Of a DNA stretch of 64,000 nucleotides, positions 11,945 to 38,332 are shown piece by piece; position 1 is the first letter of the stretch; every line of letters begins with the position of its first letter. This DNA is from Mustelus asterias (lineage: Eukaryota): assembly GCF_964213995.1 (NCBI RefSeq), contig NC_135816.1:46624001-46688000 (forward strand), given 5' to 3'. A program made the position numbers and the translations under genes. Below the pieces are notes generated by a model that did not search any database, had not been told where the DNA came from, and saw only the letters and a program-made list of their open reading frames with translations.

Positions 11945-13510
11945 TACACTGGTTGTAAACCCTGACCTAACGTTCTAATTGCGCTCCTGAAAATCGCAAC
12001 TTTAAGTGAAACAACTTTAAGTGAATTGTAGTTTCCCATAGGAAACAATGTTGAAGCCAGAGTTCGGTTACTTCAAACATTTCTCACACATTAAAAACAC
12101 TGTACAAGTTGAAATACTGTACTATATGTGTGCAACACTGCAAGTTATTTCCGCTCGTGTTCGGAAGTAGGAATGAAATGAAAAGTAAAGAATTGTGAAG
12201 ATAGGCATGTAGCTGCACTGAAGGTTTGTGAGATGCAGCTTAGACTAAAAGGGGTGAAACTAATACTTTGTTCAGCAAAGTGGTGTCTAGATCAGAGGTG
12301 TATCCAGTTTAAAAAGAGTTTGTTTTTTTCCTTTCAGAGACTGTCAAGCTGTTGTGCCAAACGCAGGAGAAAGTTGTCAGTGTCAGACCCCAGAATATCT
12401 ACTCTAAATTAGAAGAAAAGTTTCCCAAAAACATGCTATATGTTTTGTGTGGTTAGTATTTGCTGGATTTGTCTCATGGTGTTAAAACCTATGGGATGTT
12501 GTTTTGGGGAAGGTGTATTCTCAGAGTTTAGGAAAGTAGATAGAGTAAATTGTGGGGGGGGGGGGGGGGTGTAATTCAGTATACTGTCTGGATAACAATT
12601 ATTGTAATTAATTTTGTTCTTTGTCTGCTGCCTTTCTGGTTATGTGATTTAAAGTTTAATAAACATTTTGATATTTGACTAAGTTACATCCAGACTGATC
12701 GGGTCATCATCTCTTTTCTCACATTTTTTTCCAAATTGCAAAAATAAATTGTTAAGACCCAGCATTCCAAGTTTCCCTTCTGGGACTTGGGATGCCCTCA
12801 CATTGAACATCAGTGAGGTTCATAACACTAGAAATGCATGAATTAAAATATATCACCAACTGTAAAAGAGAAAAGAAAATCCTAGTCCTAACCCTAACCC
12901 CGTTCTGTACTCAGTTCAGTACATATTACTTTTACATTGACCATAATCTGTCAAGAGGTTGAGGTTGGATTGTTCAGTTATCTGCGCTGACAAACTTTTG
13001 CCACTCTATGGAGCCTAGGACTTTGTGCTGGTTCAGGAGCAAAGGCAGGAGCAGCGTCAGAAGTCAAGAGCCACTGAAGAGCAGATCCCGAGGACTCAGG
13101 TAAGAACAGAGGCTGGGAAGCAAGCAAGACTGAGAGTCGACAAAGCTAAGAGTTAGTGAAGTAAAGTTAAAGTTTATTTAAGGTTTATTTATTAGTCACA
13201 AGGCTTACATTAACACTGCAATGAAGGTACTGTGAAAATCCCCTAGTCGCCACACTCCAGCACTAGTAAGGGCAGGGGAGGGTGGGGGGAGGAGGGAGTC
13301 TGCAAGTGAGAGGAAGGAGTTGGCAATGTCAGGCATCAACAAGTCGTGAAGGAAGAGGGAAGGCAGGAGGAAGAGGAACTCAGGGCGAAAGTGAAAGCAC
13401 TATAGGAAGAGTTAGGGTTAGGGTTAGGGTCAGGCCACATAAAAGGAAGTGTTTTCCATTTGTTAAATGTTAAAGTGAAAACAACAACATTAAATGGATA
13501 TATGGACAGT
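11945..13510. mobile_element. Putative Tigger/pogo-like element containing an LTR-like piece (~12150-12827) and a SINE tail (13165-13262)
   Basis: Left end with repeated actttaagtgaa; right end ...aacattaaatggatatatggacagta; LTR-like aataaa...ggttcataaca. Confidence 0.35.
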
Positions 13511-14209: not shown

Positions 14210-14452
14210 TGTGGTGGACCTCAGTTGTGCTTTTGTCCTACTTGGACCACCGTTGGGTGTTTGTTATGCCTGGGTACATCCCCTGCCGGCTCGGCACCTC
14301 CCCTCGTCACCTAATATAAAGGTGGCTGTCTCCTCCCCCTTGTTCAGGCCGGGTCGGTTACCTGTTGGGATGTGCTCCTGATTCTGTTATGAATAAAAGC
14401 CTACAGTTGTATTGGCACACAAGTAGTCTTTTGCCTAATTGATAGCGCAACA
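14210..14452 (+). mobile_element. 5' LTR of Ty3/Gypsy element (243 bp)
   Basis: Starts TG(tggtgg) exactly where the L2 breaks and ends (gcgcaa)CA; TATA-like aatataaag at ~14313; AATAAA at 14392. Confidence 0.85.
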
Positions 14453-14477
14453 ATTTTATTCATAACATTTGACCGAC

Positions 14478-15908
14478 ATGGAGCAGATTTTAAAACCCGA
14501 AAAGTTAACATTAGACCCTCAAGAGGTCGGAGCCTCTGATAAATTTAACCATTGGCTGGACTGCTTTGAAGCATTCATCGACGCCGCTGCGGCCGTCGAC
14601 TCCGACGGCGATAAGCTCCACGTGCTCCGCGCCCGGGTAAGCGATGCAGTCGACGGTATCTTCCGAGACGCTACTACATACGCGAACGCTATAAAACTCT
14701 TAAAAGGGCAGTTTTGAAAGAGCCCTAACGTGGTCTACGCCAGGCATCTCCTGGCTACCCGCAAGCAGCAGCCAGGAGAATCGTGCGCCCAATTTCTGCG
14801 CGCCCTGCGGGTCCTAGCTCGAGCTTGCGACTGTAAGGCTGTTTCAGCAGCTCAGAACATGGAGGACCTGATCCGCAACGCCTATGTTGCGGGTGTTGAG
14901 TCTACTTACATTCGGCAGCGCCTGCTTGAACAGGATGGCCTGGATCTCCGGAAAGCGGCCACGATGGCTGAATCGCTAGAAGCGGCCTCTCGCAATCTCG
15001 GGGCCTACCCCGCATCCCATTCCATCGACGGTTCCACCACAACGGCTGTTCCTGTGGGGCCCAAATGCTACTTTTGTGGCCTATCCAAGCACCCTCGGTG
15101 TCGCTGCCCGGCAAAGGATGCGATCTGCTCCGGATGCGGTAAGCTAGGCCACTTCGTTAAAGCCTGCCGGGCGAAGCCGATCCCGAAGTCTCGTGGCGCC
15201 ACGTGTGTTCCGCGCGCGCCGCCATCTTTAATGCAGTTGGCGTCTGCGCGCGAATCGCCATTTTTAATGCGGTCACCGGAAGTGCAGGAGTCGCCATCTT
15301 TGATGCCGTCATCAAGATGCGCTGAGCAGGAACCTTTATCCGTGACGTCATCAGACGCGGACGAAGATGGATTCTTCCTGGATTCGACGGTGGCATTGAT
15401 TTGCCTGGACCAGTCGCAGCCTCACCAACTCTCCAAGTCAATAATGGAGATCAAGGTAAATGATTTTGCAGAAAACTGCCTGTTCGACTGCGGGAGCACA
15501 GAAAGTTTTATACATCCTCGCACAGTGCGTCAATATGCCCTTCCCGTGCAGCCCTGGAGCCAGATTATCTCCATGGCTTCGAATTCCCACTCAGTGGAGG
15601 TCCTCGGGTGCTGCTTGGTGACGCTGACGGTACAGGGCACAGTCTACGAGCGTTTTCGGCTCCTCGTGCTGCCGCGACTCTGTGCAGCTGTACTGCTGGG
15701 GTTAGATTTCCTCACCCATCATAGGAGCGTCACCCTGCAGTATGATGGCCCTTATCCCCCGCTCTCCGTCTGCCAGGCACCGTCACTGCAGCGCCCCCCG
15801 CGCACCACCTGCAGTCTCTCGACCCTCAAGATTACCCCCCCGCGCGCCCCCCCCCCCCCCCCCCCGCACCTTTATTCAATAATCTCACCCTGGATTGCAG
15901 GCCGATAG
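14478..15908 (+). pseudogene. Gypsy gag plus aspartic protease (one in-frame stop at 14715)
   Basis: RKQQPGES major-homology-like motif; zinc knuckles CYFCGLSKH and CSGCGKLGHFVKAC; protease LFDCGS; LLGLDFL. Confidence 0.9.
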
Positions 15909-17712
15909 CCACCAAAAGTAGGTGCTATAGTGCGGAAGACCTTCATTCGGTCCGAAGTACAACGTTTGCTCAAGGAAGGGATTATCCAGGCCAGCACCAG
16001 CCCCTGGAGGGCGCAGGTGGTCGTAGTTAAATCGGGGAGAAACACCGCATGGTGATTGACTATAGCCAGACCATAAACAGGTATACCCAACTAAATGCGT
16101 ACCCTCTTCCCCGCATCGCGGACATAGTCAACCGGATCGCGCACTATAGGGTTTTCTCTACGATTGATTTAAAATCGGCTTACCACCAACTCCCTATCCG
16201 CTTGTGGGATCGCCCATATACTGCCTTTGAGGCGGACGGTCGCCTCTACCAATTCCTCCGAGTCCCCTTTGGTGTCACCAATGGGGTCTCAGTTTTCCAG
16301 CGGGCCATGGATCAAATGGTGGACCAGCACGGGCTACGGGCCACTTTCCCGTATCTGGATAATGTCACCATCTGCGGCCATGACCTGCAGGACCATGATG
16401 CCAACCTACAAAAATTCCTCCGTACGGCCACTCTCCTGAATCTGACATATAATGAGGCGAAGTGTGTCTTTCAGACATGCCGCCTCGCCATCCTTGGGTA
16501 CGTGGTAGAAAATGGTGTCCTTGGTCCCGATCCAGCCTGTATGCATCCCCTCATGCAGCTTCCCCTCCCTACTACCCTCAAAGCACTGAGGAGATGCCTG
16601 GGCTTCTTCTCCTACTATGCCCAGTGGGTTCCCCGTTACGTGGATAAAGCCCGTCCGCTCCTAAAATCGACCTCTTTTCCCCTGGTGGAGGAGGCCCGTC
16701 GGGCCTTCAACAACATCAAAGCGGACATCGCGAAGGCCGCGATGCATGCTGTGGATGAATCCATCCCATTCCAAGTGGAAAGTGATGCGTCTGACTTTGC
16801 CCTAGCCGCCACCCTTAACCAAAGGGGCCGTCCGGTGGCCTTTTTTTCCCGGACCCTACAAGGCCCTGAGATTCGACACTCCTCGGTTGAGAAGGAGGCC
16901 CAGGCCATCGTGGAAGCCGTCCGGCACTGGCGCCATTATCTGGCGGGCCAACGGTTCACTTTAATTACGGATCAGCGGTCCGTTGCCTTCCTGTTTAACA
17001 CCAGGCAGAGGGGCAAGATTAAGAATGACAAGATCTTGCAGTGGAGGATTGAGCTCTCCACCTACAGATATGACATCATGTACCGGCCTGGGAAGCTCAA
17101 TGAACCCCCAGACGCCCTGTCCCGTGGAACATGTGCCAGCGCCCAATTGGACCAGCTACAGTCCCTCCATAACGATCTCTGTCACCCGGGGGTCACCAGA
17201 TTTTTCCACTTTGTCAAAGCCCATAACCTGCCCTACTCCCTCAAGGAAGTCCGGATGATTACCAGGCGGCACAGTAGCACAGTGGTTAGCACTGCTGCTT
17301 CACAGCTCCAGGGTCCCGGGTTCGATTCCCGGCTCGGGTCACTGTCTGTGTGGAGTTTGCACATTCTCCTCGTGTCTGCGTGGGTTTCCTCCGGGTGCTC
17401 CGGTTTCCTCCCACAGTCCAAAGATGTGCGGGTTAGGTTGATTGGCCAGGTTAAAAATTGCCCCTTAGAGTCCTGGGATGCGCAGGTTAGAGAGATTAGT
17501 GGGTAAAATATGTGGGGGTAGGGCCTGGGTGGGATTGTGGTCGGTGCAGACTCGATGGGCCGAATGGCCTCCTTCTGCACTGTAGGGTTTCTATGTTCTA
17601 TGTTCAATGCAGGGTCTGCGCAGAGTGCAAACCGCAGTTCTACCGGCCAAGTGGGGCGCACCTTATAAAGGCCACTCGGGCGTTTGAGCGCTTTAGCATT
17701 GATTTTAAAGGC
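15870..17712 (+). pseudogene. Gypsy pol (RT, RNase H, integrase N-terminus), frameshifted and 3'-truncated
   Basis: YPLPRI, IDLKSAYHQ, PFGV, YLDN; RNase H SDASD...EKEA...TDQ...PDALS; HHCC split by a SINE; stops after SIDFKG; no 3' LTR seen. Confidence 0.92.
17265..17604 (+). mobile_element. HE1 SINE inserted in the integrase zinc finger
   Basis: tRNA-like A/B boxes (cagtggttagc; gggttcgattccc), V-domain gggtttcctccgggtgctccggtttcctcccacagtccaaag, CR1-type ttctatg tail. Confidence 0.92.
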
Positions 17713-18855: not shown

Positions 18856-20105
18856 AGGGGTGGCACAGTGGTTAGCACTGCTGCCTCAAAGCTCCAGGGG
18901 TCCAGGTTCGATTCCAGCCTTGGGTAAATGTCTGTTTGGAGTTTGCACATTCTCTGTGTGTGTAAGGGGAGAAATCCTAAAGGGTTAGTAAAGATTTTTA
19001 AACCATTAGACATTAAGTCACTGACAGAACCACCAGCATTGAGTTAAATGACTTTAAAACGGACTTATAAGCTAACAAGAAGGCAGTTTACAACATATGA
19101 AATGCAGTAAGAGATTTAAACAAATGATTATGATTTTAAAACATATATGCCGATATTTTGAAAGTATTTTTAAAAATCATTGTTCATTTTAGCCAAAGGC
19201 AGATTGCCGCAAAGCATGATGGTAAAGGGCATTGGGACAAAGCCATATTCTAAGGGAATATGCAAGGTATTATCAGCAGAGTTTCTAATGTTAAGATCAT
19301 TCGGAACACTTGATCAAATTTCATGAATAGGGTTTATTCACTGTCCAGATAAAATGGATGCATGCCCAGATATGGAGTCATGTATTCATCTGGTTTGGCA
19401 GTGACCTGTGAAGGAAGTTATGGGAACATTCACTTTGAACTTTGGGCTAGAGTCTGAGGTTACTAGACAACATGGGAAGTGGGGTTAGCCAAGACAGGAG
19501 TTAGCTTCCGGATTCTACAGAATAATAAAATTCCGCAATGCCAGAGGACATCATCTAAAGTATATGACAGGTATTATCGTTGATTTATGTATATTGAAGA
19601 TGATTGATTTAAAGCTGATGAAAGGCAAGAATAATTGATAAGAAAACCTATAATTGATCTGTTCTGAATTGTATATGTCAGAATTATTGGAGAGGTCCAG
19701 CTGCTCCGTCTCAGGAGTTGCCCCAACCCTTTGATGATTTCTTCTAGCAGCCGCTGGTCAAAATAAAGGTTACATCTTCAAACTGAAACACTGGCTTCGT
19801 GAGTCTTGTATTGTCTGAAATTTCTGATGGTACCCGGCCATCTCGGAAACCCCACTAACAGTGCGAGTTTTCTTCGGTTACTCCGGTTTCCTCCCACAGT
19901 CCAAAGATGTGCGGGTTAGGTGGATTAGTTGTGCGAAATTACCCCTCAATGTCCCAATGTGTGAGGTTAGATGGGATTAACCATGGCAAATGTGGTGTTA
20001 TGGAGATAGGGTGGGGAGAGGGTAAAATGCTCTGTCAGAGAGTCAGTGCAGACTCAATGGGCTGAATGGCCTCTTCTGCACTGTAGAGATTCTATGATTC
20101 TATGA
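18856..20105 (+). mobile_element. HE1 SINE split by a solo LTR
   Basis: SINE 5' half 18856-18960; V-domain and tail resume at 19861. Confidence 0.85.
18961..19860 (+). mobile_element. Solo LTR (900 bp)
   Basis: TGTAAG...CTAACA termini; 5-bp TSD gtgtg/gtgcg; aataaa at ~19762. Confidence 0.85.
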
Positions 20106-24780: not shown

Positions 24781-25010
24781 CGGTGGCACAGTGCTTAATA
24801 TTGTTGCCTCACAGCTCCTGGGACCCAGGTTCAATTCTCGCCTTAGGTAAATGTCAGTGTGCCATTTGCACATTCTCCTTGTGTCTGCGTGGGTTTCCTC
24901 CGGGTGCTCCAGTTTCCTCTCAGTCCAAAGATGTGCAGGTTAGGTGGATTGGCCATGCTAAATTGTCCCTTAGTGTCCAAAGATGTGTAGGTTAGGGGGA
25001 TTACCAGGGT
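24781..25010 (+). mobile_element. HE1 SINE, 3'-truncated
   Basis: A/B boxes and V-domain; abuts the 5S units. Confidence 0.85.
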
Positions 25011-25011
25011 A

Positions 25012-25210
25012 GCCTAAAGCCATGCTAATCTGAAAATGCCAGATCTCAGAAGCTAAACAGACTCAGCCTTGGTTAGTACTTGGATGGGATGGGAGATTGC
25101 CCAGGACTACTTGTGCAGTAGGCTTTGCTGATGCCAACAGCCATGTTCATCTGAAAATGTCTGATCTTGGAAGCTAAGCAGGCCTGGTTAGTGCTTGGAT
25201 GGGGGACTGC
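25012..25210 (+). pseudogene. Two tandem degenerate 5S rRNA units
   Basis: Unit 1 25012-25126 (gcct...gaagctaa...ttggttagtacttggatggga...gtaggcttt); spacer gctgat; unit 2 starts at 25133. Confidence 0.88.
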
Positions 25211-25439
25211 ATATGGATATAGAAACTGGGGTGTCATCTCTGCATATCTCCAAGGCATAAAACACAACATTTGACGAGGAGATGGAGAATAGCTAAATTT
25301 ATCAGCTTTCCTAGCTTTCTTATCTTCACTGAAAGATTCATTAGTGCCATGGGATCTTGGAGTTCAAGACCTACCAGCTCATTATAGGGATGAAGAGTCC
25401 AGATGTTGCAGTGACCCACAAGCAGGCAATCCTCCAAAT

Positions 25440-26630
25440 TGTCTTGGAGCAAAAGGCTAACAAATATTCAAGCAGCTCACAGAAGACACATTTACATTTG
25501 ATATGGTGGTAAATGTTCTCAAAAAATACTTCAAGCCAAAGGAAAGTGGTGATCAAACAATACGTTCCACTGAAGATATCAGGGAAATGGTGAGCCCATT
25601 TGGCAGCATGACAGAAATTGTCTTCCACATGTAAATTTGGCACTCTAACAACTAATTCGAGAATAATTGATTATGAAAGCTTTAATTTCATGAATTAGGG
25701 AACATTTCCTTGTGGAGAATTATGATTTGGCCGAAGAAAAAGCCACAACTTTGGCATTCTAAATCAGATGTGTCGCATTAGATTTGAAGAGGTTACTTAA
25801 AATAGCACCCTTAGACTCAGGATTGCACATACAGATTGCCCAACCAGCTCATTTGCAAGGATTATGGACAAAGAAACCACAGCAATTTCATTATCACGTG
25901 CCCCACGGTCAGATACCTGCAGAAATGTGCTCAAATTGTGAAAGTACTTAAGGACTCACAACACCATTTCCAACACAAGAGAAAAAGTGTAACTCCTGCT
26001 TAATGTGGGATCACTTCGCAAAGGTGAGTATGTCATCAAAAAGAGGACTTCATTGGTCTGACATAGGAGGGAGTATCTTCCTGAGAGTGAAGTGCAGCAT
26101 GTGTATACCCTCACACATGATAAAAGGACCAGATCATTTTAAGGAATACTCAATTGAGATTGCAAGCATTTCAGTAACAGACCCTCTTCAAACTTACAAT
26201 GACTCAATTGTTCCAGTTTCAGGACGATCACAGTTCCAGTACGCCACAAAACATCACGCTAGACAGATTCACGTTCTACACAGGCAAAGCCTTATGGAGA
26301 TAAATGTTTTCAATAAGCTTGGCTTCAAACCCGATCCCAGCAGAGCATATATTAAAGTGATCAATGACACTGACTGTGCACAACAGTAAGGAAGTATCCT
26401 TCCTTATTTGCCATATTTAGGGAGATTAAGGAGGATTGTCATGCTCCTCACATCAACTCGTGAATTCTTGCAGTTTCACAAAATTTGCGGTGGTTGCCAT
26501 TTGCAATCCATGCAGGGATGTCACAAGAGCTGAAAATGACTAGACACAAATGGTAACTCTGATGGAGTTGACTGCTAACCATAGATGTTGAACCAAGCCA
26601 TTGTACAATGCAAAAAATTATGAACTTAGA
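25440..26630 (+). mobile_element. Highly degraded Gypsy gag-pol fragment
   Basis: Decayed zinc knuckle (aagtgtaactcctgc...cacttcgcaaaggtg) and protease/RT-start-like remnants. Confidence 0.45.
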
Positions 26631-26632
26631 CT

Positions 26633-27260
26633 ATGGGGACGATCTTACCAGAATTTGGCAAAGTGTTGGTTACGGCAAAAAAAATTGAGTGAATCCCACC
26701 GACGGCTCCAGCCTAATTTCTGACCTCATCTTGGACCTCATTGACATAGGTTTATAAGTGAGCCTCAAGCAGTCTTTTTCTGGAGCCCCTTGCACACCCC
26801 TCCCACCTCCACCTTTGTCTCTCACCCAGCCACTTCAACCTGTAAGGAGGCCTTCCCCCTTCCCTAATCGTTATGATCCCTCCTACTCACTGTCATGCTC
26901 CTCACACTCCAGCTCCCACTTGAGTCCCACGCCTACCATACCTCATCATCATCTTAAATGTCAACACTCCTGCCTATACTTTCCTTATCTGCGTCATGGC
27001 AGGACAAAATAAACCACAGCAAGCGTGAACAAGAACACCCAGCTAGAGTAATGCCGGAGCTCAGAACCCTCAGGCAGTATGAGGAGAGAGCCCTCGAGCT
27101 AGTCGGGAGGAGGAAGAGCGTGCCTGTGCTACTGGTGAAGTGGAGCAGCAGATGTGAGAATCCTCAAAACGTGCTGTCATTCCTTAAGTCTCAGGCGAGT
27201 AATCAATGTTCTCTCCTTTATCCTCAGTAATGCGCTAATGCCATCTCCCTTCTCTTGTAG
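26633..27260 (+). mobile_element. Harbinger-related fragment with a Myb-gene exon remnant
   Basis: TIR-like ggggacgatcttacc; peptide DKINHSKREQE...LRQYEERALELVG. Confidence 0.5.
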
Positions 27261-27289
27261 GCGATAATAAATCAAATCAAATGTTGATC

Positions 27290-28350
27290 AAACAAATGGT
27301 TGGATGTCATAAGGGGTTTCCAGCATAACCATTACATGGCACAAAGATTTCATCTCCTGGCTTCAGTGATGTAGCTCTGCATTTCATGGTTCACTCTGCA
27401 TTTGCTCTCATGAGACCACATATAGTTCATTGTGTTGAGCTTGCCTCGCTGATGCTCAACGTGGAACTTGTAGTGAGTATCCAACGTTCTATTTCAGTAG
27501 GTAGCTATGTGAATTGTTGAATAAACTTACTAGTGGTCTATGATTCATTATGACTTCAAACTCGCTTCCTACCAGTAAAGATGAAAGTGTAAGATACCCC
27601 TTGTGATTTAGAGTGCTTCTCTCTCTGTTTGCAAACAGCATTTCTCTACAGATGTTAGTGATGTGCTTGACATTGCAATAATTGATGACTTCTGCCTTGT
27701 TTTTTTGCAGGAGAACTTCAGCAAAGACAATGGGGCTTGCATCCATGACGAGCTGGGTGGCTTTCTCAAAATAGGTATCTGTGCAATTTGCTGACAAACA
27801 TTGTTTGATCTGGTGTACAGCCTGTTTGTATGATGTCATCCCTTCCTACTTGGTCTCTGATGTCAGATCATGTAGGAGAGCAGATGGGACACACTGGGAT
27901 CTACGTGCAACTTACATTTAACATCATGCAGTTTGCCAAAACTAGTGATACATACAACTAAAGAATGTTGCTGGTGCACAGAGAAAACATGTATGTGGCA
28001 GCAATCATGCGCAGACCTGGTGCTGTGGGAAAACTGATAAGTGTCTCACATTCTCCAGATTTGTCATAAAGCCTTCATTCTTGTGGCTTTGAATGAGAAT
28101 GGAATTTCAAAATCCTGAAAGTTTTAGTAATTTGGTTGTTAGTTGCCTCAACCACACAATACTGATCAATTGTTTCATTGGCTTCTTGCTTCATGCATTT
28201 GAAGATGATAGACTCATATTTTATATTCTTCTTGGGTGTAAAAGACAAATTCGTGCTTTTGTCGTGTTTCAAAAATATCTTCTCATTCTTCATTGCCATA
28301 GTGGAGAACCAAAGCCTTTTTCCTTTTGTCCTCTCCGACCCCTTTCCCAC
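27290..28350 (-). mobile_element. Degraded Gypsy pol/gag fragment
   Basis: RNase H remnants TQLVMDASP..VLLQ and FEVIMNHRPLVSLFN. Confidence 0.7.
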
Positions 28351-28355
28351 CTCCA

Positions 28356-29115
28356 GGGGGGAATTTTACCATTTTGAGTCTAAGTGCCGGATCTGGGCGT
28401 CAAATAGATCCGCGCCTGGAATCCTCTTTCCAGCGCGCCCATAGGCGTTTTGCCGGCTCCGGCCCGATCCGCGCTGTGTGCGGGGCTTAGCGCTGGTGGA
28501 CCGATCGGAGCTCTGAACTGCACATGCGCAGTTCGAAAAAAATTTGACAGAGCGCGCCCGGGCGCAAAAAAAAGCAGAAAGCGGAGAGAGCGGCTCTCTG
28601 ACGTTCATCCTCTGGTCGGAGTGGGGGGGAGAGAGGGGGGTTGGGAGGGGAGGGGGTGTGACCGATCATCCCCTGGGGGGGGGGGGGGGGGCTGGTGGAG
28701 AGGGGTTGTGACGTATAATTCCCTGGGGGGGGGGGGGGGGGTGGGGAGGGGGGGCGGGGGGGGGGGGGGAGAGGAGAGGGGGTGTGACGTCTCAGACTCT
28801 GGTTGGGGGGGTTCCGCTGCCTGTCTGCAGGTTTTATTTTGCAGGTGGGTAACAGCGCGGACGCGGATCGGGCCAGAAGACAGTAAAGTGGGATTTGGCA
28901 GTAGAGTTGGGCGCACGGTTCATTAAGTCGATTTAAATACATGCAAATGCATTTAAATCGTCGGGCCGCCCGATTCAGGCGCGGGCCCGAATCGGGTGAC
29001 GGTAAAGCCACGATCTGCTCGGAATCGGGTGCAGATCGTGGTATAGGCCCGATGCCCAACTTTACCGCGATTTTGCGCCCGAAAACGGGTGCAAAGTTTT
29101 GGTAAAGTCAGGACC
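28356..29115. mobile_element. Harbinger-like MITE, same family as 8370-9412, opposite orientation, no RPL39
   Basis: TIRs ggggggaattttacca / tggtaaagtcaggacc; 3-bp TSD cca; both arms align with 8370-8640 and 9220-9412. Confidence 0.88.
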
Positions 29116-29674
29116 CCAGTGTCTGTGTTCACCTGGAGGCAAAGTTGACCCTCCAGTTTCCATAGAATGGATGAATCCCCATTCGTGGCACAAGAGTCAC
29201 AAAAAGCCAGTATGCAGGTACAGCAGGTGATCAAGAAGATAAATGGAATGTTGTCCTTTAAGGTAAGGGGAATGGAATATAAAAGTAGGGATATTTTGCT
29301 GTAATTGTTCATTTTCATCCAGCCAGCAGCAAGATTTCAAAAGCTCGAACTATATATATAGCGCGCATGATGTAATTTCCTCCCACCCATGCATCTCGTG
29401 GCACACACTCCATACCATTTCACAAGCAGCTCCTGCCTACCAGAAACACCGAAGCTCAGCTTCGTGGAGACTGAGTTCATCTTCTGGCTGCGCTCCCTTC
29501 CCTTGCTTCTCTCAAACAGCACAATCATGATCCTCTCACTCTCGGTGAGTTGTGGAAGGGAGGCAACTAGCTGTATTCCCCTTTGATGGAGCAACGGCTT
29601 AGACAGCAGGATCGATTAGCACAAATCCCTCAGCGAATCCAATAGTCTGCCGGACTCTGCCAGGAGTATTGAGC

Positions 29675-31495
29675 AATCCCATACAAGAAACCCAGATATG
29701 ACCTATGGAGGTCCATCAAAGATGCCAAAAGGCAGTACCGGACCAAGCTAGAGTCCCAGGCTAGCCACACAGTCTCCCATCGACTATGGCAAGGTCCGCA
29801 AGACATAACAGGCTACAAGATGAAGGCATTCAAAATTGCCGGCACCAATTCACCCCTCCCTGATCAGCTCAACGCATTCTATGCCCGTTTTGAGCAAGAA
29901 GTCAGCGAGAGCATGCCCTCAACCCCGGATGTCTCAGACAAACCTGTATCTGAGGTCACCATTGCAGATATCAGAGTAGCTTTCTTGTAAGTCAATCCAT
30001 GGAAAGCGACTGGCCCGGATGGGGTACCTGGATAAGCACTCAGATCTTGTGCGGATCAGCGGCAGAGGCTATTCGCAGATATCTTCAACATCTCTTTACA
30101 ACAATCTGAGGTCCCTATCTGCTTCAAAAAGATGACCATCATCCCGGTACCTAAGAAAAACCAAGCAGCATGCCTTAATGACTATCGGCCGGTGGCTCTG
30201 ACATCCATCATTATGAAGTGCTTCAAAAGGATAGTCATGGCACAAATCAATTCCGGCCTCCCAGATTGCCTGGATCCACTACAATTCGCCTATCACTGCA
30301 ACAGGTCCCCAGCAGATGCCATCTCCCTGGCCTTACACTCAACCTTGGAACACCTAGATAAAAAAGACACCTATGTCAGACTCCTATTTATTGACTACAG
30401 CTCAGCCTTCAACAACATTATTCCGACAAAACACATCTCCAAACTCCGCGGCCTGGGGCTCAGCTCCTCCCTCTGCAACTGGATCCTAGACTTCCTAACC
30501 CACAGACCACAATCAGTAAGGATAGGCAACAACACCTCCTCCATGATCATCCTCAACACCGGTGGCCCACAAGACTGTGTTCTCAGCCCATTACTAAACT
30601 CCTTATACGCCTATGACTGTGTACCAAATTCCCCTCCACTCGATTTTCAAGTTTGCTGATGATACCACCGTAGTGGGTCAGATTTCAAACAATGCTGAGA
30701 CGTAGTACAGGAAAGAGATAGAGAATCTGGTGAACTGGTGCGATGACAATAATCTCTCCCTCAATGTCAACAAAACAAAGGGGATAGTCATCGACTTCAG
30801 GAAGCCGATGAAGGACATGCCCCACTTCATCCCCCATGTTTACATCAATGGGGATGAAATGGAAATGTTTGAGAGCTTCAAGTTTCTAGGTGTCCAGATC
30901 ACCAACAACCTCTCCTGATTCCTCCATGCTGACGCTATAGTTAAGAAAGCCCATCAATGCTTCTACTTTCTCAGGAGGCTAAGGAAATTTGGCATGTCCG
31001 CTACAACTCTCACCAACTTTTACAAATACACCATAGAAAGCATATCACAGCTTGGTATGGTTCCTGCTCTGTCCAAGACCGCAATAAACTACAAACGGCT
31101 GGTGAAGCCCAGTCCATCACGCAAACCAGCCACCCATCCATTGACTCTGTCTATACTTCCCGCTGCCTCGGCAAAGCAGCCAGCATAATCAAGGACACCA
31201 CGCAACCCAGACATACTCTCTTCCACCTTCTTCCGTCAGGAAAAAGATACAAAAGTCTGAGGACACGTACCAACCGACTCAAGAACAGCTTCTTCCCTGC
31301 TGCCATCGGACTCTTAAATGGACCTACCTCGTATTAAGTTGATCTTTCTCTACACTCTAGCTATGACTGTAACATAGCTGCAATCTCTCATTTCCTTCAC
31401 TATGAACGGTATGCTTTGTTTGTGTAGCATGCAAGAAACAATACTTTCACTGTATGTTAATACATGTGACAATAATAAATCAAATCAAATCAAAT
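29675..31495 (+). mobile_element. Rex1/Babar LINE, 5'-truncated, decayed RT
   Basis: IIPVPKK...[11 protein letters not shown]...DPLQFAY...[14 protein letters not shown]; FADD; (aaatc)n tail. Confidence 0.92.
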
Positions 31496-31699
31496 TGCAA
31501 AATCAAAGACCTTCAGGTGGGATCTCTTAAATGTTGAACTGCTTCCTTCCAGCTAATCAGAGACAAGCATGAATAACATTTGATACTTTGTCTGGAATCC
31601 TTGGTTCCCACACGATACATACACCTATGTTTTGTTTCACATGCTGGTCTCAGTTTTTTTCATCAAATTTAATTATAAAAACTGGCTACTGCAAACAAA

Positions 31700-33790
31700 A
31701 GAAGAGTGGAGGCAGAGCGTCATGAGAAAAATGTCAATGTCGAAAGACACAAGAGCACAACACGCATCAAGTATGAAGAATTTCAAGGACAAGTGCAGAT
31801 GGATAAAATTTAAAAGAATGTGATTGCGCGGCAAGCAATTCTCACAAGGCCGAGAAAGGTAATGGACAGTGTCACGCAAGCCAGTTGTAATGATCAAACT
31901 TATCACAAAAGCACCTCATTCAGAAGGAGAGTTTGTAAAGGAGTGCATTTTTGCAACCGCAGCTTTACTGGCTCCAGAGTAAATTAAATTATTTGAGAGT
32001 GTGAGCTTGTCTCACAGGACCGTGTCAGCTGCAATTAATGTTGTGGCTCAAGACACTGAAAAGTTTCTGAAAGATCCTGCGGCTGATTTCGAGTTTTACT
32101 CTCTGGCTATTAATGAAACAACAGACGTAACAAGAAAGTGCATCTGGTGACTTTACTGCGTGGTATCACAGCAGATTTTGAGTTTCAAGACGACCTGCTT
32201 GCTTCAGTAACAATGCATGACACCACCAAAGGTGAAGATAAGCTTGAGATGGTTACTTCAGCAGTGCACGTGTTTCAGTTATCATTAGAAAAATTATGTA
32301 ATCTCACTATTGATGGTGCTGCGGCTACGGTTGGATCTCAAAAAAGATATAAAGTTTATTTATTAGTGACACAAGTAGGCTTACATTAACTCTGCAATGA
32401 AGTTACTGTGAAAATCCCCTAGTCGCCACACTCCGGCCCCTTTTCGGGTACACTGAGGGAAAATTTAACATGGCCAATGCACCTAACCAGTACGTCTTTC
32501 GGACTGTGAAAGGAAACCGGAGGAAACCCATGCAGACATGGGGAGAACGTGCAGACTCTGCACAGACAGTGACCCAAGCCAGGAATCGAACCCGAGTCCC
32601 TGGCGCTGTGAGACAGCAATGCTAACCACTGTGCCACAGTGCCTATGTTGCTCGAACCAAGAAAGAAATTAATTTTATTGATCCAACATTGATCCAAGTA
32701 CGTTGATTGTATGTCACTGTATAATTCGTCAGGAGAATGTATGCGTGCAGTCCGTGCGACTGAGCAATCAAATGTTACCAGTAGCATTGAGCATTAGCTT
32801 CGTTAAAAGTACAGGGGTAAACAGCCGACAGTTTAAGAAGATAATGGAAGACTTCGAATCAGAGAATGGACAATTTAGTGTATTATTGTGAAGTGCGATG
32901 GCTCTGCCAGGGGATGTATACCAATGCAGTTTTATGAACTGAGGAATGAAGTGAAACTTTTCATGGAGGAAAAGAAGAAAAACCTGTGGCCAAGCTGAGT
33001 GCCAACAAGCGGCCATGTGACTTGACTTTTATGGTCGACATTACGCTGTACCTGCCTGAGCTCAATGTCAAACTGCAAGATCTGAAACCAACTTCTTACT
33101 TCCCTCTTTCCAATGTGGAATCCTTTCAAGCCAAATTAAAGCTGTGGCAAATGCAATTGGAAAATGGCAACACAATGCATCTCCCTACCCTTCAGAAACA
33201 AAAAGCTGCCACAACAGTGGAGGACGCCAGTGAGTGTGCGAACTTACTTCAGAAATTTCATGAAAGAGAAGGAACTAAAATTAAACATTTTTGCCACACT
33301 GTTCGATATCGAAGCAGTCGATGTACCCAAAAACCTTCAACATGAAGTTATAGAACTGCAAAGTAACATTGAATATAAAACTAAATATAATAACCCTGTA
33401 TCTGTTGGAATGCTACAGACTCCATATTAATGCCGATGAATTTCCAAACGTCAGGAACCACCTGCTGAAAATTGCATCACTGTTTGGAACTACGTCCTGC
33501 CGTGAGCACCTTTTCTTTTCAAAATTTTGTCACACAAAAAAAATCTGTATGTCTTAACAGATGTGAACGTGGAAAACCTGTTACAAGTAGAAACATCATC
33601 AGTGCTAGCAGATATAACCAAGGCTCATTAAGGAAAAGCAAAGTCAGATATTGCATTTAAACAACTGGTGAGTTGAATATTTCTGCATTATCTCTAAAGG
33701 AAATTAAGATGGTTTTTGTGTGTGTGTGTGGCCTGCCATTGATTTTGACCATGTGTGAATGGTTCTGAATAAGGAAAAGGTCCCCACTTC
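31700..33790 (+). pseudogene. hAT (Charlie/GTF2IRD2-like) transposase fossil
   Basis: SLAINETTD, TMHDTTKGED, TIDGAA, CHCIIRQE, ELNVKLQ, LFGTTSCRE motifs across frameshifts; TIR-like aaaaggtccccac at ~33780. Confidence 0.85.
32350..32642 (-). mobile_element. HE1-related SINE with alternative 3' tail
   Basis: HE1 head and V-domain joined to the tail ggggattttcacagtaacttcattgcag...aataaataaacttta. Confidence 0.85.
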
Positions 33791-34210
33791 TACACTACCA
33801 TGGAGACAGATGTAAAATACCTGTTCAGTTCATCCATCATGTCCTTATTTTCCATTATCAATTCTCCATTCTCACTCCTCGAGGCCCAAAACTCACTTTC
33901 CTTACTCTTTTCCTTTTTAGAGACTCTTGCTATCTCTTTTAATATTTCTAGCTCACTTTCTCTCGTACTCGACTTTCATCCTCCTTATTAATCTTTTGGT
34001 TATTCTTTGCTGTTCTTTATTTTTTGTCCAATCTTCTGACTTGCCATTCAAATTTGTGGATTTATACATTTTCTTTCAATTTGATACTATCCTTTTCTTC
34101 CTTCATTAGCAAATGATGGTGGATCCTTCCTGTTTTTTCTCACTGGAATGTATGTTTTCTGAAATGTCTCCTTAAATATCTGCCACTGCATCACTACTGA
34201 CCTATCCCTT

Positions 34211-34517
34211 TGTTGTGCTATGTGGTTGCATGCATTGTAACGTAAAGGTACTCAGTAGAACAAAGGTTGACATGGGACTGGAAAGTGGCACAAACCACAG
34301 TATGATGCACAGAGTCACATGGTAATAGTTTCTGAGAATAGTCTGTAACAGAGCTCTGCAAGCAGCCTACCTGCATGGAGACAATAGCTCCATGTAATAC
34401 TTGGATCTGTAAATAGTTAAATTAACAATAAATGGTTCATATTTAAACATTGAAATCTCAAGCCCTCATCATCGAGACATCACATTGTGCCATATTATAA
34501 CATGGCAGTAGTGGGAT
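34211..34517 (+). mobile_element. LTR (34211-34502) followed by a tRNA-Leu-like PBS
   Basis: TGT...ATAACA termini with internal aataaa; then tggcagtagtgggat, similar to the complement of the tRNA-Leu 3' end; A-rich internal region extends to ~36400. Confidence 0.7.
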
Positions 34518-35284
34518 GCTTGTAAGGGATAAATTTAACATGGTTGGCACTGGTGGGACCTTCTAAAAGATACCACAGCAACAAAAGTACCATAAATCTG
34601 TGATATAAAAAAAAGCATTTTAAACAATGAACTGAAAACAGCATCCCAAGATATGAAAGACTACAAGCATCTGAAGCCGAATAGAAACATTGCAAGACTC
34701 CCGTGTGAGACAGAGCAAGAACTGTGCAGTCCACAAGACAGATGAGTAAAACCACAGAGAAATTGCAAGATGCCCGAGGAAGAATGCACAAGATCAGACT
34801 GTAGCTGCACTTACATCTTAGAATAAATAGGTGACAGTCCCAAGGGGCTCAGTAGAATGCAACAGCTGAAAGAGAGCTGCAAGTAAAACACACAGGTTTA
34901 AAAAAACCTGCAAAAAATGGTTGACAGAGTTAAAGACAGAATCTGCAGAGAGCAGAACAGAACAAAAAGAGAAAAGTCCCTGCAGAGTATAAACAAATAA
35001 AGAATTATTTGCTCTGAAGATTAAAAAGAAACAGCAATCAGAACAATCAGAAGGCTGTAGCTTTAACTTTTTAATAAAATCCAGTACAGTGCAAAAGCTG
35101 GAACATGCTGTACATTGATACAGGTGTTGCAAAATGTACCTGCAAAATTTATTTTTCATAGGTCTGCCCGGGAAGAAGACCTAAAAAAACAGAGAGAAAC
35201 CAACTGTATCCTCACAACTATGGCCTGCTTAAAAAAAAGTTACTAAAAAAGTGGCAACTACAAAACAAAAATGGTTATGGGCAG

Positions 35285-37129: not shown

Positions 37130-38332
37130 AGGTGCAGGATTCTCCAACCTCGTCAGATGGTCCATGGGAATCTCAATGTCCTGCTGAATGAGACTTCAGG
37201 CAAAAATCCAGATTCCCCATGGGTGTCAAGGCAATCAGAATTTACCCAACCTGCACTGGCAACTCAGACAATTAGTGGGTTCAATGGCCCATTCACCAAC
37301 CCCCGTCATTCACCTGTCCCCCTAACGGGAATGGCACCAGGCAGGTTTTGGTGCTGCTAACCACAAGCGGGGACATGTCATGCTGAACCCGAGGGTCCAG
37401 GGGAGCACCACCAGCCCCTGAGAAAAGGGGATCATCCCCCCCCCAACACCACTCACTCAGGGTGGCACAGTGGTTAGCACTGCTGCCTCACGGTGCCAGG
37501 AACCTGGGTTCGATTCCCAGCTTGGGTCACTGACTGTGCAGAGTTTGCACGTTCTCCTCATGTCTGCGTGAGTTTCCTCTGGGTGCTCCAGTTTCCTCCC
37601 ACACTCCAAAGATGCGCGGGTTGGGTTGATTGGCCATGCTAAATTGCCTCTTAGTGTCAGGGTAAATACTAGCAGGGTAAATACTTGAGGCTAAGGCCTG
37701 GGTGGGATTGTGGTTGGTGCAGACTCAATGGGCCAAATGGCCTCCCTCTACGCTGTAGGGATTCTATGGAATCAAGGGTCACCCCCCACCCCCTCCCTCC
37801 CCCACACAGACATCAGGGTGACCTGACCCAACTCCCCCTCAACCCCCTCCCCTCTCAGAGCCCCCCACTCAGGCCCCCTCCTCCAGTTGAGAGCTGTGAG
37901 AAGGGCCTAAGTGGTTTGCAAGAGAGGAAGTTAAACCACAGGCTGTCAGTCAGGCTTAGAATCTTTGTAAACATTCTGGATCAATGGAGGCACTTGAGAT
38001 GCATAGAAGCATGAAGGGAAAGATCAATAAATTCAGCTGTCACTGGAGGTTTCTTTCACAGTGGGTGGGGGGAGGAGTTGTCCCTTTTTGATTAGGGATT
38101 GGTGGTGCTCCCCTTGTCAGTGTTGGGGCGGAGGGAGGCCTGTCTCTGAGCACGAAGATCGGAGGAGCCCCAATCTCTGAACAGCAGCTCTGGCTGGTAG
38201 GTTCCCAAAATGACCTCATTAGCTTCTTTCAGCTGGGTAAATCCCACCTGACAGATGCTCCCAGTGTCAACAGGAAACACTCATGTTTTCCCACCAGCAC
38301 GAGCATTTCACCTAAGAAGGGGAGAATTCCAT
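37130..38332. mobile_element. Harbinger-like MITE with an HE1 SINE inserted (37459-37770)
   Basis: ggattctcc...ggagaattcc ends; canonical HE1 inside. Confidence 0.55.

Follow-up and report, generated by a model that had tools for sequence, protein, structure and literature searches.

Self-priming of reverse transcription has been worked out in the fission-yeast element Tf1, in which the RNA's initial 11 bases pair with the PBS and serve as the primer, RNase H cutting between bases 11 and 12 (PMC7175516). The accounts of Tf1 and Tf2 of Schizosaccharomyces pombe, Tj1, Tosmo and the Tf1/sushi group describe elements with the Ty3/gypsy domain order whose PBS lies just past the 5′ LTR and pairs with the element's own LTR RNA, there being no tRNA site (PMC7175516, PMC10085805, PMC4600332). 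Self-priming has likewise been predicted from PBS-LTR complementarity for Tcn1-clade chromoviruses and plant TAR (Houba/Osr-1) copia elements (PMC6317226), which shows that the trait arose more than once. Both differ from the element described here in lineage and host, and a primer over the poly(A) signal is not among the properties given for them in the part of PMC6317226 cited here.

The Saci2/lennie elements of flatworms resemble our element in being compact Gypsy elements, of about 4.7-5.2 kb and with a single ORF, whose PBS varies between families (PMC12471100). These are described as having a tRNA PBS and a 4-bp target duplication (PMC4558846, PMC12471100), whereas our element has a 5-bp duplication and no tRNA site. 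For Saci2 of tapeworms, the variation of the PBS from family to family has been read as tRNA switching (PMC12471100). Our homologue list includes a Spirometra protein; the three Spirometra accessions are absent from the table of PMC12471100, and a kinship with Saci2/lennie is conjectural. The CsRn1 clade is described with a tRNA-Trp PBS, a CHCC Gag and a 4-bp duplication (PMC2582038), in contrast to the two CCHC knuckles, the 5-bp duplication and the lack of TGG found here. Our literature search found neither a name for the clade nor a non-chromovirus animal Gypsy clade with such a primer; subscription journals and Repbase reports were outside that search, so an earlier mention is possible. 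New here are a probable self-priming variant in a non-chromovirus animal clade and fold-back insertions that turn at the PBS.

The element and its clade

The window, which is the whole 64,000-nt stretch of Mustelus asterias DNA that was analysed, contains a Ty3/gypsy retrotransposon, not a chromovirus, in a decayed copy. Its pol order, PR-RT-RH-IN, is that of Ty3/gypsy, and its features are the following.

14210..14452, + strand: 5′ LTR, TG...CA, 243 nt; ends set from the family's 3′ and solo LTRs and from 5-bp target duplications
14315..14320, + strand: TATA box (TATAAA), read in the sequence
14344..14348, + strand: initiator-like motif, with A 14346 as the predicted start; three read-through products end here
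14385..14398, + strand: PBS partner and candidate self-primer, predicted RNA +40..+53; when paired, its 3′ end faces the LTR end
14392..14397, + strand: AATAAA poly(A) signal within the partner, predicted by folding to be paired in the 5′ context and partly open in the LTR alone
14454..14467, + strand: PBS, 1 nt past the LTR, without TGG; exact complement of 14385-14398
14478..15908, + strand: gag-protease region with two CCHC knuckles and an aspartyl protease, interrupted by a stop near 14717
16031..17267, + strand: RT, RNase H and the start of integrase; YLDN at 16352-16363
17268..17604, + strand: SINE-like repeat inside integrase, with further copies at 18860, 22638 and 24774
17605..17712, + strand: final piece of integrase; the match to the element ends at 17712

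The decay of this copy is seen in the stop in gag, in the placement of protease and RT in different frames and in the splitting of integrase by the SINE; neither a PPT nor a 3′ LTR was found for it within the window. At the junction, the CA at 14451-14452 is followed by a single A at 14453, and the gag ATG stands at 14478. The LTR boundary was set with 20 family copies, one of them a tandem and one without a second LTR in the stretch. The second LTR ends at the same CA in 19 of the 20 and is never then followed by the 14-mer, a purine tract precedes the 3′ LTR in copies that have it whole, and a 5-bp target duplication is exact in 16 of the 20 and carries one mismatch in two more. An alternative LTR end at the ATAACA that closes the PBS was ruled out, because 3′ and solo LTRs end in GCATCA with target duplications. 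The gag-protease linker of the window copy (15220-15310) holds a 36-nt tandem repeat whose copy number varies among family copies. Elsewhere in the window are a tRNA-Arg(ACG) gene at 37455-37528 (ARAGORN) and short telomere-type repeats at 12881-12898 and 13411-13428, in opposite orientations about 0.5 kb apart.

A homologue search returned 1,528 proteins at E<=1e-20. Within the 120 best, the hits that are named belong to a ray, a catshark, cnidarians (corals among them), a mollusc (a sea slug), spiders, flatworms and nematodes. The Ty3 RT matches at E about 1e-43, as against 1e-128 or better for these 120. The label of a YLDN-RT lineage, which the sequence-only reading had attached to the element, is apt insofar as YLDN is the commonest RT motif among homologues, but only 22 of 60 aligned rows carry it, with YVDN, YLDD and others also occurring at this site. 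Two CCHC knuckles, YLDN and a proline-rich tail are present in an unbroken 1,329-aa frame of a sister family, which gives no Pfam chromo match at E<=0.1 and has no GPY/F motif. Tf1/sushi elements combine a 5′-terminal primer with a chromodomain (PMC10085805); as judged from this sister-family frame, our element has neither GPY/F nor a chromodomain and, lacking the latter, falls outside that group. A chromodomain search for sushi-type elements in the genome gave 17 loci, none with an RT/integrase match.

The genome contains 25,000-35,000 first-look pol candidates, and the many copies with identical LTR pairs indicate that the clade has been active there very recently. Three copies (L045, L168 and L176) are tandem with or adjoin another family member, L045 and its upstream copy having one LTR in common.

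Pairing of the PBS with the LTR

The sequence-only reading had claimed a 14-nt complement one base past the terminal CA of the LTR, and direct reading finds it exact: ttttattcataaca at 14454-14467 is the reverse complement of tgttatgaataaaa at 14385-14398, next to an LTR end that the 20 family copies confirm. None of 20,000 LTR shuffles produced an exact 14-nt complement that begins no more than 3 nt from the end of the LTR, the maximum being 11, and the fold of the 83-nt stretch has z = -3.96. The polarity is that of a primer, since the 3′ end of the partner points to the LTR end when paired. The complementarity also holds beyond the window copy: among the 30 loci that match best, the window copy counted, the 14/14 pair is intact in 27 and differs by one base in the other three, and it covaries in sister families and distant relatives, as described below.

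A 14-nt junction motif identified 9,111 LTR/PBS junctions in the genome, compared with 8 control matches. As an unselected set we took 60 of the first 61 junctions listed on one contig (the remaining one being already among the copies examined) and kept 57, the three excluded having a deletion over the partner, a fold-back and a broken PBS. There are 17 PBS haplotypes among the 57, and the PBS follows the element's own LTR over 13-15 nt. Pairing is 13/13 with the 5′ LTR in 43 of the 57 and with either LTR in 50. At positions 8-13, which vary, the PBS matches the LTR of the same element at 0.97, as against 0.48 when LTRs are swapped (maximum 0.61 in 10,000 swaps), and the match drops sharply from 0.84 at nucleotide 15 to 0.09 at nucleotide 16. 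PBS and partner change jointly on many branches of a tree built from the RTs of 85 copies, the change from AATAAA to ATTAAA included. Among pairs of copies with less than 3% RT distance, which are not independent of one another, divergence at the paired variable positions is 0.21, compared with 0.04-0.08 in the flanking LTR; the leader 3′ of the PBS diverges similarly fast in such non-independent pairs (0.19). This rapid variation of the PBS between subfamilies is unlike the Tf1 group.

For the 49 two-LTR elements, the count, restricted to cells with agreement between the LTRs, is 618 Watson-Crick pairs, 2 G-U pairs and 4 mismatches. Decay after insertion predicts 5.7 changes for these elements and would by itself explain both the G-U pairs and the mismatches, so stable wobbles are essentially absent. 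We infer that this near-absence is more in keeping with a PBS copied anew from its primer than with a helix that selection maintains. A search with a variant-PBS pattern also gave matches, 15 of the 40 fetched being chance occurrences in non-element DNA; since the pattern favoured decayed variants, its matches were left out of the pair counts. In a single case (L327), the PBS disagrees with a partner base common to both LTRs, while sister copies match; this copy is possibly a one-generation intermediate ahead of correction of the PBS. Another copy (L175) carries a deletion between short direct repeats that runs from just 5′ of the partner into the PBS, with loss of the LTR end.

In metagenome relatives, a usable LTR pair was present at 16 of 80 loci, of which 14 were assessed by shuffling and two by eye. 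Eight of the 14 pair 13/13 and four pair 12/13 (0/500 shuffles each). Of the other two, L119 has 11/13 positions paired (p=0.018) and L092, with 8/13, fails in ungapped comparison. The two read by eye, L082 and L084, have 14 and 13 nt paired. These relatives represent about 11 families with RTs 43-61% identical, and the partner ends in a TAAA-like run in all of them. A canonical hexamer (AATAAA or ATTAAA) falls within the duplex in only five of the 11 families, and in L083 and L125 it lies downstream, outside the duplex. By these comparisons, the pairing of the PBS with the element's own LTR is a clade-wide feature.

Insertions that turn at the PBS

In one copy (L219), the first fold-back found, the PBS continues as an inverted copy of the LTR. 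Searches aimed at this arrangement gave 24, 18, 92 and 13 matches in overlapping lists, each with 0 control matches; of the first 24, seven were not counted as fold-backs, four of these by checking. Among 93 pattern-picked junctions, 79 carry an inverted copy of the LTR as far as the start of U3 (a target duplication is visible in 63 of them), four are fold-backs that run into the PPT and ten are of other kinds, namely two with a mutated U3 end, one normal element, one ambiguous case and six early stops. One fold-back occurs among the 60 unselected junctions. The roughly 90 fold-back insertions examined change direction exactly at the PBS, and their target duplications indicate that they formed before integration. 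As read from these junctions, the fold-backs show new PBS-bearing plus-strand DNA pairing with the partner; single-stranded PBS tails are reported on about 50% of Tf1 cDNA (PMC11042837). A template switch at an inverted repeat yields the same product, however, so that fold-backs alone do not identify the primer.

Three products (L219, L233 and L358) end at the predicted +1 and then jump to internal sequence by microhomology, with endpoints, allowing for the microhomology, at 53-54, 48-55 and 50-53 nt respectively; L233 and L358 retain target duplications. L358 came from a search aimed at +1 without a matched control search. Of five unselected short endpoints, two fall at +1 and the others at about 28-31, 36 and 164 nt; by a rough hand estimate, the chance of two in five at +1 is 1-3%. 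These cap-site products match a plus strand that copied an untrimmed 5′ fragment, which is suggestive of such a primer, but priming on a second RNA, at its 5′ end, could account for the three instead.

The fold-backs also form a small repeat class in the genome. Palindromic insertions of 430-610 bp combine a single LTR with U3-R in inverted orientation, carry two U3 ends, have a target duplication of 5 bp (L225-L240, L245-L292 and L353-L385; more than 100 pattern matches), and could be mistaken for MITEs. L358 is a TRIM-like two-LTR miniature with a target duplication, the inside of which consists of the inverted first ~52 nt of the RNA, a short AT-rich stretch and the PPT. Six insertions (L226, L228, L231, L235, L237 and L240) start with inverted U5, turn at the U5 hairpin and cross the PBS into inverted U3-R; since the natural U5 hairpin explains such starts, we did not take them as evidence for the cut site.

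The source of the primer and the poly(A) signal

Taken with the results above, self-priming in some form is very likely, and we give a probability of roughly 0.55 to one particular form, in which a 5′ fragment of the element's own RNA (its first ~52 nt) would be the primer and the PBS would be re-copied from it. Transcription would begin about 52 nt upstream of the 3′ end of the partner, and the partner would fold onto the PBS. A cut just past AAUAAAA, probably made by the element's RNase H as in Tf1, would free the 3′-OH of the capped 5′ fragment; RNase H cleavage in Tf1 is a precedent for such release (PMC7175516). Minus-strand DNA would then begin over the 1-nt spacer into U5 and jump by way of a short R downstream of the hexamer. 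The unpaired front of the primer would be removed, leaving attached the 13-15 nt protected by the PBS, and plus-strand strong-stop DNA would copy what remains, so that the PBS is rewritten from the LTR in every cycle. A side effect of the duplex would be to hide the 5′ poly(A) signal wherever the hexamer falls inside it. The start, poly(A) and cut sites in this scheme are predicted positions, and cleavage, trimming and the jump by the short R are steps that we infer.

The start site is predicted from a conserved spacing; contigs of four runs, examined for RNA evidence, showed neither starts nor ends. The TATA motif stands 31-33 nt ahead of the initiator-like motif, and the latter 50-53 nt ahead of the 3′ end of the partner, in 88 of 94 elements; the scan took the candidate nearest the expected spacing, and it detected a TATA motif in only one of 14 distant LTRs. 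The predicted start thus lies about 39 nt upstream of the partner, which would make the primer internal, unlike that of Tf1: the partner here is 13-15 nt long, has the poly(A) signal at its end and is predicted to occupy about +39 to +53. The sequence-only reading had cautioned that the partner might not be the 5′ end of the RNA, and the predicted position supports this. An intron that would move the partner to the RNA 5′ end was ruled out by eye, there being no room between initiator and partner. The Tf1/sushi group has a three-duplex 'pretzel' enclosing its primer; in our elements, additional helices are seen in single folds.

In the alternative that survives best, the element is self-primed from another copy of the partner, either the 3′ R of circularised genomic RNA, the tail being cut after the hexamer, or short transcripts ending at the 5′ poly(A) signal and acting in trans. 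Because the partner is identical in the 3′ LTR, sequence alone cannot tell which copy primes. Both LTRs contain the partner, which overlaps the poly(A) signal, the four fold-backs out of 93 that extend beyond U3 into the PPT are in keeping with this alternative, and it also accounts for the covariation and the lack of wobble. On the other hand, folding places the 5′ partner on the PBS (pair probability >0.5) in 85 of 90 elements, and a 3′-R primer would not yield the three cap-site products, though short 5′ transcripts in trans would. We regard this alternative as rather unlikely.

A plain Tf1-type arrangement, in which a second start at the 5′ end of the partner would put the 13-15 nt at the very front of the packaged RNA, is less probable still. 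The sharp 13-15-nt length would follow from it directly, a TATA-like run stands about 24 nt upstream of the partner in some subfamilies, and Tf2 is reported to use alternative start sites (PMC5341516). However, the window's family is among those that lack this TATA-like run, the large majority of elements, as given above, retain the upstream TATA/initiator pair, and the read-through products end at the upstream site.

The duplex could also be a regulatory hairpin only, serving poly(A) masking or packaging, with the primer elsewhere. The folding results are what such a hairpin would give: opening the hexamer of the window copy costs 9.2 kcal/mol with the PBS present, compared with 1.4 in the LTR alone, the medians over 90 elements are 6.9 and 1.7 kcal/mol, with a cost more than 1 kcal/mol higher in 85, and the hexamer lies inside the duplex in 90 of 94 elements of this genome. 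Nevertheless, a structural helix should gather G-U pairs and almost none were found, in every family the pairing begins 1 nt past the LTR, at the place required for the end of a primer, L083 and L125 have their canonical hexamer outside the duplex, and another primer site is not evident. A purely regulatory role is therefore very improbable.

Priming by a host tRNA or tRNA fragment, with the LTR match secondary, is the usual mode for LTR elements, and variable tRNA primers have been assigned to the flatworm Saci2/lennie elements (PMC12471100, PMC4558846), but it is scarcely credible here, as TGG stands at the PBS in none of 38 distinct post-LTR sequences, their longest tRNA complement is 5 nt in a partial comparison (27 tRNA sequences of only 8 types), and the 17 PBS haplotypes track the LTR rather than a fixed RNA. 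The haplotype diversity is the stronger argument against a tRNA than the partial tRNA comparison. These results agree with the earlier proposal that the lineage primes without a tRNA.

In HIV-1, an RNA structure, the poly(A) hairpin, masks the 5′ AAUAAA; that hairpin lies within the repeat, and a tRNA is the primer. In our element, the masking strand would instead be the PBS, which is found only past the 5′ LTR. The suggestion that the duplex hides the 5′ poly(A) signal is supported by folding, as an equilibrium prediction, for the window's family and its relatives in this genome, but not as a universal property, given the five of 11 distant families with a canonical hexamer in the duplex. Masking is thus predicted, and not clade-wide.

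Returning to the 5′ fragment as primer, we tentatively propose that an animal-wide Gypsy clade primes with an internal piece of its leader that bears the poly(A) signal, carried on a capped fragment of about 52 nt. A single duplex would both prime and silence the 5′ poly(A) signal, and the fold-backs would record intermediates of the process. The tRNA-based PBS filters of annotation tools would miss such elements. The fold-back insertions allow start sites and primer ends to be mapped with nothing but the genome sequence, and a single genome with over 9,000 junctions would allow the model to be tested by sequencing of RNA ends and cDNA. If it is correct, the internal primer would be a second route of self-priming, which would need a cut as well as a trimming step unknown from Tf1. 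With its PBS rewritten in each cycle, the clade would have a primer that is free of host tRNA, ranks among the fastest-changing parts of the LTR and is private to each subfamily, and its elements may lie beyond the reach of tRNA-fragment silencing.
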